A stretch of 26,847 bases of DNA, taken from Candidatus Undinarchaeales archaeon. GTDB lineage: Archaea > SpSt-1190 > JASMDC01. The translations under genes were made by a program, and so were the position numbers. How positions within the stretch are numbered: the stretch's first letter is position 1; every line of letters starts with the position of its first letter. The notes beneath the pieces were generated by a model. That model did no database searches. It was not told where the DNA came from and was given only the letters and a program-made list of their open reading frames with translations. Shown here one piece after another: positions 17,033 through 18,508 of this stretch. The stretch covers positions 1 through 26,847 of the forward strand of contig JASMDC010000047.1 of the NCBI GenBank assembly GCA_030753015.1, written 5' to 3'.

Positions 17033-18508
17033 TCACTCCACCTCGCTCAGTGGTCTGGCGAGCAATCGAATGCTCCCCGTTCCGGGGAAGACGGGCTGTC
17101 CAACAGCAACGTTCTCCACGACGCTGCTTAGGCGATCGACATCGCCTCTGATGGCTGCCTTCATGAGGTGCTTCATCGGCACCTCGAAGGATGCGCGCGC
17201 TAGGACGCTTCCCTTCTCTCCCGATACGCCGTACCGCCCGATTGCCTTGATGACACCATCTGAGGTCATTGTGTCGGCAACGAGCATGATGTGGCGGATG
17301 TCCACATTGGTTACACCTGCCTCGGACATTGTATTGGTGATCTCCCTGATGATGCCGTTACGCGCCGCCTCGATGCCCAACACGACAGCGATCTCCTGGA
17401 CGTTATTGGTCGTGGTGCGCTTAACATCAACGCCTTCCATGTTCAAGATCTCTGAGAGGTTCGAACCCTCTGTATAGATGATATACTCGTCCTCTCGCTT
17501 GCGGATCGTGGTGTGAGTGATGTTGGGGATGCCTATCACGTGTGCGTCGGCCAACCGTACTCGTACCGTTTGGAGGTCCTTGATCGTATACTCCTTCTTC
17601 TTGGGCTTGACGATGATCTTGCTCTCTTCGTCCTCCAGAGTAGTGGTGACACCGCGCACGCCTTTCTTGACCGCCTTGAGCACTTCCTTCGGATCTAGCT
17701 TGATGCTCTTGAGCTTCTTCACGTCTAGCTCAGCGACGATCGTGAGGTTGAGAAGGTCGAGACTAATGCCCGTGCAGATATCCTGTACAGCGGTGGACTT
17801 GATCCTTCCTGCGAGGACGATAGATTCGTCCCGGTTGGCACAACTTTTTTCGGTCATGTACACCGTCATGACGGGCGTGCTCGGTTCCTTCCGAGCGTCC
17901 ACGATTTCGATGATGCGCGGAAGACCCAGCGTGACGTTCATCTCCAGGACACCTGCATAGTGGTAGGTACGCATAGTCAGCTGAGTACCCGGTTCCCCGA
18001 TGGACTGTGCCGTGATGGACCCGATGGCCTCGAAAGGGTGGACCTGCATCCGAGCATAGCTCAAGAGCAGGCGCTCGGTCGCGTCCTTTGCCTGGGCAAG
18101 AGTGAGCTTCTCGGACTCGATGATGTCCGCGAATTCCTCTGCGAGCTTTGGTGGCAGGATGCTCCGCACCTCGTCCGTGACGACCTTATCGGCCATAGGA
18201 CGCTTCTTCCTAGGAATCTCCTTCTTCTCTTCGACCACGACGACATCCTTCTTCTTGCTCACCTTCTTTTCGGTGGTCTTCTTGGCCGTCGTCTTCTTGG
18301 CAGCGGCCTTTGTCACCTTCTTTTCGGTGGTCTTCTTGGCCACTGTCTTCTTGGCAGCGACCTTTGTCACCTTCTTTTCGGTGGTCTTCTTGGCCACTGT
18401 CTTCTTGGCAGCGACCTTTGTCACCTTCTTTTCGGTGGTCTTCTTGGCCACTGTCTTCTTGGCAGCGACCTTTGTCACCTTCTTCTCTGCGGTCTTTTTC
18501 TCGGCCAT
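17033..18508 (-). CDS. rpoA2: RNA polymerase subunit A'' (Rpo1C) with a Lys-rich N-terminal extension of about 100 aa
   Basis: [55 protein letters not shown] 18508 overlaps the rpoA' stop (TGATG) with a GAGGTG RBS. Confidence 0.98.
18259..18484 (-). repeat. 54-bp coding tandem repeat x4 plus a partial copy ([18 protein letters not shown])
   Basis: Units start at 18259, 18313, 18367, 18421 and 18475 (partial); the middle three are identical. Confidence 0.95.

Follow-up and report, generated by a model that had tools for sequence, protein, structure and literature searches.

We analysed a 26,847-nt stretch of DNA from a Candidatus Undinarchaeales archaeon, an uncultured marine organism, referred to below as the window, and found that its gene for RNA polymerase subunit A'' (rpoA'', encoding Rpo1C) opens with a lysine-rich N-terminal tail of 104 codons that contains a tandem array of an 18-codon unit. 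The tail keeps the reading frame and is conserved across the genus; it bears the signatures of coding sequence and is predicted to be disordered. We read it as a polycationic appendage that would tether the polymerase, electrostatically and without sequence specificity, to DNA or nascent RNA, and give this reading a probability of about 0.6; the binding of nucleic acid and the effect on transcription that it implies are proposed by analogy. Archaeal RNA polymerase is usually seen as an invariant core, with lineage differences in small subunits such as Rpo8 and Rpo13. Rpo13, bacterial topoisomerase I, Ku and HU-type proteins already provide examples of lysine-rich tails that contact nucleic acid unspecifically; what is new here is a tandem repeat on the catalytic subunit, at the point where Rpo1 is split.

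The tail and its repeat array

The window is one contig (C59) of a 3.85-Mb genome in 117 contigs (G000; 60% G+C, completeness estimated at 98.9%, contamination at 5%), and the features discussed below are collected in Table 1. The 104 residues of the tail include 39 lysines (38%), 18 threonines, 15 alanines, 15 valines, nine glutamates and a single serine, giving a net charge of +31, as against 7% lysine and a net charge of -3 in the 387-amino acid (aa) core. Each 18-aa unit holds seven lysines, one glutamate and four threonines, and is free of serine, proline and tyrosine. An initial annotation, made from the sequence of the window, had described about 100 aa of such units ahead of the core and three identical DNA copies. 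The script and Tandem Repeats Finder (TRF) results bear this out, and all details of that description that can be read from the sequence were accurate. In an AlphaFold2 model built from a 25-sequence alignment, residues 1-96 have a predicted local distance difference test score (pLDDT) below 50 and no secondary structure, and order starts at residue 104. The same annotation had called the tail histone-H1-like, which holds for composition and fails for family membership: the Pfam family HC2 (PF07382) scores 23.7 bits on the tail, under its gathering cut-off of 40, so that the likeness is compositional, and no family for a globular winged-helix (linker histone) domain was found in A'' at E ≤ 0.001. 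The possibility that the tail is a mobile cassette, or was duplicated between genes, was rejected, as tail DNA had no match in the genome other than itself and two weak hits of a compositional kind (68% and 73%).

The array is real and not an assembly artefact, one of the two alternatives that the initial annotation had named as fatal to its case. A run search found the stretch in runs of marine or seawater metagenomes belonging to 11 studies. Three DNA runs, each of a different study, agree on the array: the Logan contigs that enter it from either flank break off within it, at 18320 and 18455, and its interior is carried by unitigs of 44-53 nt that are deeper than the flanks. A 53-nt unitig reaches approximately 4.6, 3.8 and 3.9 times flank depth in the three runs, and a 46-nt junction unitig (18291-18336), unique in the assembly, is yet at 2.1-3.3 times flank depth. 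These depths are too ambiguous to yield an exact copy number, and the assembled number (three identical units and one variant; 4.4 copies) is probably a minimum. Equally deep variant unitigs are also present: an A to G change at 18360, replacing valine by alanine, occurs in one DNA and one RNA run and matches P0001, the 491-aa representative in the protein database. Both length variants, of 491 aa (P0001) and 511 aa (P0002, contiguous), are in frame, and in the sister species of the same genus (G001) the array is interrupted by a 100-N scaffold gap.

The inner units of the two species can be told apart by their synonymous positions. The four units u1-u4 of the present genome share the signature GCTGCCAAGAAG, and the four readable inner units of G001 share GCAGCAAAAAAG. 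Since these signatures are species-specific, the array appears to undergo concerted evolution by slippage or unequal exchange, in line with the recent expansion or homogenisation proposed in the initial annotation. The tail would thus have grown by in-frame slippage or unequal exchange of the 18-codon unit and been homogenised within each species.

Translation start and position at the A'/A'' split

The upstream ATG of rpoA'' overlaps the stop codon of rpoA', a coupling that the initial annotation had pointed out. The same TGATG junction, followed by a tail of the same kind, is found in G001, and the ATG is preceded by the Shine-Dalgarno-like sequence GAGGTGGTG. Motifs of a similar kind (GAGGT/GGAGG) stand before rpoB', rpoA', L30e, S12 and S7 in the operon, whereas an internal in-frame ATG (at MADKVV) and an in-frame GTG (18236-18238, in a VVVV stretch 14 codons upstream of that ATG and present in both species) have merely partial AGGA matches upstream. 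A short-motif search for the 3' end of 16S rRNA, which would define the anti-Shine-Dalgarno sequence, returned non-rRNA contexts only, and the argument therefore rests on the comparison with neighbouring genes. The initial annotation had allowed that translation might begin at the internal methionine, but this codon is ACG (threonine) in both G001 and P0002. The next in-frame ATG in these two lies only about eight codons before the conserved PFEAIG, and starting there would remove conserved N-terminal helices.

Coding signatures in the tail are specific to the lysine frame. In a comparison of the present genome with G001, the ratio of nonsynonymous to synonymous substitution rates (dN/dS) comes to 0.22 over the initial 47 codons of the tail, 0.21 over another 88 aligned codons of the tail and 0.056 over the 387 codons of the core, with dS similar in tail and core (0.48-0.68). 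When the same gapless 141 nt are read in the other two frames, dN/dS rises to 1.19 and 0.60; third codon positions of the lysine frame hold 11 of the 22 differences in this segment. The lysine frame has a G+C content at third codon positions (GC3) of 0.78, close to the 0.74 of the core, and the other frames have 0.42 and 0.37. Taken together, these features suggest that the tail is translated from the upstream ATG.

We next consider where the tail sits in the enzyme. Of the archaeal A'' sequences with a solved structure, the seven distinct ones listed, from Thermococcus, Pyrococcus and Sulfolobus/Saccharolobus, align from query residues 99-121, corresponding to their own chain residues 4-25. 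In 12 script-parsed loci of the same class, the distance from the preceding stop codon to GEPGTQ is 52-83 residues, against 170 residues from the ATG here. The tail is thus an addition to the subunit, placed at the A'/A'' split. That it occupies the split point, as first annotated, is confirmed by the Pfam profile for Rpb1 domain 5, on which A' stops at position 69 and A'' resumes at position 66, and by the last 200 aa of A', which align to residues 698-881 of yeast Rpb1. Since the A' C-terminus aligns up to residue 881, the tail would emerge where Rpb1 carries its foot insertion. On this placement it would project from a surface site of the archaeal Rpo1 split.

The rest of the subunit and its surroundings are those of an ordinary rpoA''. 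Rpb1 domain 5 (PF04998) matches residues 126-432 with 160.2 bits (cut-off 28.5; profile positions 66-263). The trigger-loop region, GEPGTQ..T..H.AG, is intact, with G171, E172, P173, T175, Q176, T178, T181, H183, Y184, A185 and G186 invariant in the 25-sequence alignment. The gene order rpoB''-rpoB'-rpoA'-rpoA''-L30e-NusA-S12-S7 is that of the archaeal transcription/translation operon; downstream of rpoA'', the open reading frames (ORFs) and Pfam matches for L30e, NusA, S12, S7, EF-2 and EF-1alpha all lie on the minus strand.

Table 1. Features of the rpoA'' tail, its operon and other tailed or fused proteins of the genome. Positions without a contig name are those of the window.
Feature	Position	Strand	Basis
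rpoA'' (Rpo1C) including stop; 491 aa, 104-aa tail and 387-aa canonical core	17033-18508	minus	ORF, Pfam
Lysine-rich N-terminal tail, 104 codons, predicted disordered	18197-18508	minus	composition script, AlphaFold2
Tandem array, 54-bp (18-codon) unit, 4.4 copies	18259-18496	minus	TRF (96% matches, score 427)
Perfectly periodic array core, 178 nt: three identical 54-nt copies and 16 nt	18307-18484	minus	script
TGATG stop/start overlap (rpoA'' ATG 18506-18508, rpoA' TGA 18508-18510)	18506-18510	minus	sequence
Shine-Dalgarno-like GAGGTGGTG, 5-13 nt before upstream ATG	18513-18521	minus	comparison with neighbouring genes
Internal in-frame ATG (MADKVV) at canonical N-terminus, not conserved as start	18194-18196	minus	ACG in G001 and P0002
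rpoA' (Rpo1N), 875 aa, ends at split point	18508-21135	minus	Pfam Rpb1 domains 1-4 and domain 5 positions 1-69
rpoB'	21140-22948	minus	ORF, Pfam
rpoB''	22953-24464	minus	ORF, Pfam
uS7, ~150-aa N-terminal Lys/Glu-rich extension	14838-15872	minus	Pfam S7 core at residues 187-343 only
uS7 48-bp tandem repeat, unit EEPKVVEEKVEKKTKA	15591-15797	minus	TRF
Multi-domain thioredoxin/DsbA-like protein, open at contig end; starts with 15-bp repeat, 11.7 copies, (KKxAP)n	1-2290	plus	TRF, Pfam
uL5, ~100-aa lysine-rich N-terminal tail starting MAEKKTA, like the A'' tail	C48:32464-33324	minus	lysine scan, Pfam
eL31, lysine-rich C-terminal tandem-repeat tail, period 45 bp	C40:70225-70866	minus	lysine scan, Pfam, TRF
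eS24, lysine-rich C-terminal tandem-repeat tail, period 39 bp	C40:80071-80607	minus	lysine scan, Pfam, TRF
MetRS, lysine-rich linker before tRNA-binding domain	C29:33250-35427	minus	lysine scan, Pfam
RpoH/Rpo5, 138-aa SAP fusion	C45:14899-15312 (L004:1477-1893)	minus	Pfam

Extensions of A'' in other archaea and tails elsewhere in the genome

A tail of the present type is confined to the genus. A'' was found in 40 of the 41 genomes searched (relatives, with the present genome included), and among the class relatives only G001 gave a match from query residue 11. Two distant archaea carry unrelated A'' extensions, one matching from residue 10 (G038) and a putative one matching from residue 35 (G037), and the remaining full-length matches begin at query residue 94 or later. 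In three genomes of family f4, open frames of approximately 1260-1286 aa hinted at an A'/A'' fusion, which was rejected when stop-to-stop reading gave 378-399 aa.

Basic extensions at the same end of A'' recur outside the class. Among the 120 best A'' homologues, 26 have at least 95 residues before GEPGTQ: two belong to this genus, two have short basic extensions (25-37 aa), 14 have low-complexity tails rich in lysine and threonine, and eight have a helical domain followed by a lysine-rich linker. Basic N-terminal extensions of 76-113 aa are present in 22 of the 120; a further 52 could not be parsed by the motif, and these are 366-399 aa long, too short to accommodate such a tail. When one tailed protein (P0107) served as the query of a scan, 80 loci came back, the majority with titles naming Thermoplasmata, Thermoplasmatales or Thermoplasmatota; of the 80, the 75 with a complete N-terminus were classed, the first methionine in the open frame being taken as a heuristic start. 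Lysine-rich extensions (at least 40 aa, at least 20% lysine) were seen in 24 of these, purely low-complexity in 12 and behind a helical domain in 12. The other 51 comprise 13 with other extensions, one ambiguous case and 37 canonical N-termini, the last including the loci titled Archaeoglobi and the methanogen-type loci except L100 (Methanocellales). The small helical domain (MAKKDT..AL..RG...) with its lysine-rich linker opens many Thermoplasmatota RpoA'' proteins (loci L073-L095 and L104-L128, including Methanomassiliicoccales; proteins P0053, P0071 and P0111), and in two of three proteins tested it gave a sub-threshold match to HhH_5 (17-18 bits; cut-off 27).

The core of the present A'' is closest to tail-less proteins, among them P0003 (57% identity) and four named Altiarchaeota (48-53%). 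Because both these nearest core homologues and the class relatives lack a tail, the simpler reading of the sequences is that the present tail was gained independently of the Thermoplasmatota extensions, low-complexity sequence being not reliably alignable. A literature search reaching few subscription journals found no paper describing lysine-rich A''/Rpo1C tails, and none describing the helical domain and lysine-rich linker on Thermoplasmatota RpoA''.

Within the genome, the A'' tail is not specific to RNA polymerase, and exemplifies a tendency of the whole genus to add lysine-rich repeat tails to expression-machinery and other proteins. Stop-to-stop frames of at least 100 aa were scanned for a 40-residue window with at least 12 lysines; 42 frames passed, and Pfam was run on 20 of them and on RpoH. 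Components of the expression machinery with such segments are uS7 and uL5 (N-terminal), eL31 and eS24 (C-terminal) and methionyl-tRNA synthetase (MetRS; linker). SecF, an ABC ATPase, a JAB protein, a CpXC protein and a DsbA-like protein also have lysine-rich tails, and seven of the lysine-rich proteins submitted have no Pfam family. G001 also has the tails on uS7 and uL5, which are absent from three of the four (uS7) and all four (uL5) class relatives tested; the relative with an extended uS7 is G003, of family f3, and the other three have the uS7 core only. Whole-genome TRF analysis returned 278 arrays, and of the 271 with a period of at least 9, 246 have periods that are multiples of 3. Eight of the 58 arrays scoring at least 200 are lysine-rich, and the rpoA'' array is the top-scoring of the eight. 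With its (KKxAP)n repeat, the thioredoxin/DsbA-like protein shows that lysine-rich repeats also occur on proteins that are not nucleic-acid binders. The histones seem to have no tails: both histone-fold genes are ordinary, an inspection that covered the second one (~68 aa). A Gln/Pro/Gly repeat protein (L151:1811-3112), an example of the in-frame coding repeats in which this genome is unusually rich, adjoins a histone gene. Genomes of this genus measure 3.6-3.8 Mb, against 0.6-1.2 Mb in the other 15 class genomes compared.

What the tail may do

The closest functional precedent is Rpo13, whose lysine-rich tail, together with the composition and predicted disorder of the A'' tail, leads us to favour a tether. 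The Rpo13 tail has 11 lysines in its last 22 residues and is disordered in all structures, and its deletion abolished unspecific binding of double-stranded DNA (PMC3479171). The authors of that study speculate on analogous elements in other archaea, and Rpo13 of the Sulfolobales polymerase is also treated in PMC2675907. The two tails are alike in being disordered, lysine-rich terminal segments of an RNA polymerase component. They differ in that Rpo13 forms a small subunit of its own, docked between Rpo5 and the clamp head, with an acidic N-terminus and a 22-residue tail without repeats, whereas the A'' tail is fused to the catalytic subunit and has 104 residues with 18-aa repeats. Rpo13 itself (PF12136) had no match at E ≤ 1 in the genome under study, a search in which the S. 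acidocaldarius control scored above the cut-off.

Other systems are similar in part. The Thermoplasmatota extensions share the subunit and the end with the A'' tail, are 76-113 aa long with 20-45% lysine, and some are pure Lys/Thr low-complexity sequence; unlike it, most seem not to be tandem repeats, and half follow the helical, weakly HhH-like domain. Prokaryotic DNA-binding proteins are enriched in lysine-rich low-complexity regions (PMC6821194). Streptomyces topoisomerase I, the PAKKA repeats of mycobacterial Ku, AlgP and Chlamydia Hc2 all have Lys/Ala-rich low-complexity repeat tails that bind DNA electrostatically, those of Ku modulating DNA binding (PMC3553676); in contrast to A'', these proteins are bacterial, their tails are C-terminal and their repeat units are different. 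By analogy with these systems, the tail would raise the local affinity or the residence of RNA polymerase on DNA or nascent RNA. The built-in basic DNA/RNA tether of the initial annotation stands as the most plausible reading, as far as analogy carries it.

Several points weigh against a tether. Tails of the same kind are found in this genome on SecF, the ABC ATPase and the DsbA-like, JAB and CpXC proteins, which are not nucleic-acid binders, and the 15 class relatives searched do without a tail on A''. That the tail could reach DNA is assumed from the architecture of RNA polymerase II (Pol II). The dN/dS values come from an alignment that is ambiguous within the repeat and from a biased and extreme composition, and the GTG shared by both species is a possible start. 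Contigs of one RNA run (X12) cover 17900-18265 and 18307-18390, and not the remaining array; this cover has no bearing on translation, as rpoA' and rpoA'' would be co-transcribed anyway, and translation of the tail is predicted from sequence.

The tails on other proteins and the tail-less relatives lend themselves to a different account, in which the A'' tail is a tolerated by-product of near-neutral, in-frame repeat expansion at a permissive, solvent-exposed N-terminus, with no particular function in transcription. A genome generally prone to repeat expansion could explain the tail in this way, since the great majority of the genome's arrays are in frame and functionally unrelated proteins are tailed; copy number and unit sequence also differ between species and assemblies (491 aa, 511 aa and the gap in G001), and the class relatives are tail-less. 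Complete neutrality is at odds with a dN/dS of about 0.2 that is found in the lysine frame only, and with composition, charge and frame that have been kept across a dS of approximately 0.5-0.7. Basic extensions that arose on the A'' N-terminus of distantly related archaea suggest, in addition, that this site rewards a basic appendage, and we consider a mere by-product unlikely. The repeat would be no more than an intercistronic spacer if A'' began at the internal ATG, which in G000 stands exactly at the canonical N-terminus, or at the GTG 14 codons upstream of it. With ACG in place of that ATG in G001 and P0002, a Shine-Dalgarno-like motif and stop/start overlap that belong to the upstream ATG, a frame-specific substitution pattern and GC3, and length variants that are all in frame, this is very unlikely indeed.

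The company of other tails raises the question of whether they act jointly. The tails on RNA polymerase, uS7, uL5, eL31, eS24 and MetRS might bind polyanions (nucleoid, RNA or polyphosphate) and bring their carriers into one phase. They do co-occur in this genome, with those of uS7 and uL5 common to G001, and there are precedents in the lysine-rich disordered regions of snoRNPs, which act in nucleolar compaction (PMC11528048), and in the H1-like AlgP, which acts on polyphosphate granules (PMC9239181). The tails differ from one another in unit and charge, however, being mixed Lys/Glu on uS7 and eS24 and almost purely basic on A'', and they are also found on membrane and secreted proteins; co-localisation of this kind seems to us distinctly improbable. 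The wider proposal that the tails and the class-wide SAP-RpoH fusion (see below) form a coordinated electrostatic system, a transcription/translation condensate on the nucleoid or RNA that is linked to the large genome, is likewise a long shot. If true, it would be a prokaryotic parallel to the lysine-rich disordered regions of the nucleolus, and the A'' tail would be one limb of a proteome-level innovation.

The largest subunit of Pol II ends in Tyr/Ser/Pro-rich heptads, the C-terminal domain (CTD), which functions through a phospho-code. The A'' tail is like the CTD in being a repetitive, disordered appendage on the largest-subunit lineage, and the initial annotation had likened the two, proposing a modifiable platform. 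Each unit does offer four threonines and seven lysines. It has no Ser/Pro/Tyr heptad, however, being made of Lys/Ala/Val/Thr rather than Tyr/Ser/Pro/Thr, and its position, at the N-terminus of A'', corresponds to approximately residue 881 in the middle of Rpb1 and not to the Rpb1 C-terminus. A methylated lysine has been reported in the basic segment of Rpo13 (PMC3479171). The analogy finds no support, and a CTD-like platform, like compensation for a missing Rpo5, is in our view scarcely credible.

Under the tether reading, the A'' N-terminus created by the Rpo1 split would be a recurrent attachment site for appendages, as in the present case and the Thermoplasmatota extensions, and by analogy such appendages would bind DNA unspecifically. 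Should the tail alter how long the polymerase resides on DNA, how it searches for promoters or how processive it is, it would illustrate in a simple way the balance that polymerases strike between unspecific and specific DNA contacts, a question raised for Rpo13 by Wojtas et al. For the specialist, the interest lies in the recurrence at one site across archaeal phyla and in the company of tails in the genome, the single instance mattering less; the genus-wide tails on ribosomal proteins are also of independent interest.

The suggestion that the tail compensates for an absent Rpo5 is refuted, as rpoH is present on another contig (C45; 97.3 bits). Its usual place is the region upstream of rpoB'', where the 400-bp gap contains no rpoH ORF. 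A tRNA-Lys(UUU) gene (24553-24627, minus strand) lies there, directly upstream of rpoB'' and in the usual place of rpoH in many archaea. The first 46 residues of RpoH form a SAP domain (26.2 bits, cut-off 23.9; SAP_new25, 27.1 bits), and the Rpb5 C-terminal domain scores 96 bits. All 17 of the 17 class genomes give a near full-length match to this long SAP-RpoH form, which is unlinked from the rpoB operon. The comparison of RpoA'' N-termini with rpoH presence in relatives, put forward as a check in the initial annotation, shows no coupling, as the tail occurs in two of the 17 genomes and is absent in the 15 others, all with SAP-RpoH. No paper describing the SAP-RpoH fusion was found in the same limited literature search. 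The fusion may be an analogue of the N-terminal 'guard rail' of eukaryotic Rpb5, or of Rpo13, and its class-wide occurrence is of independent interest for the evolution of the downstream DNA face of the polymerase.

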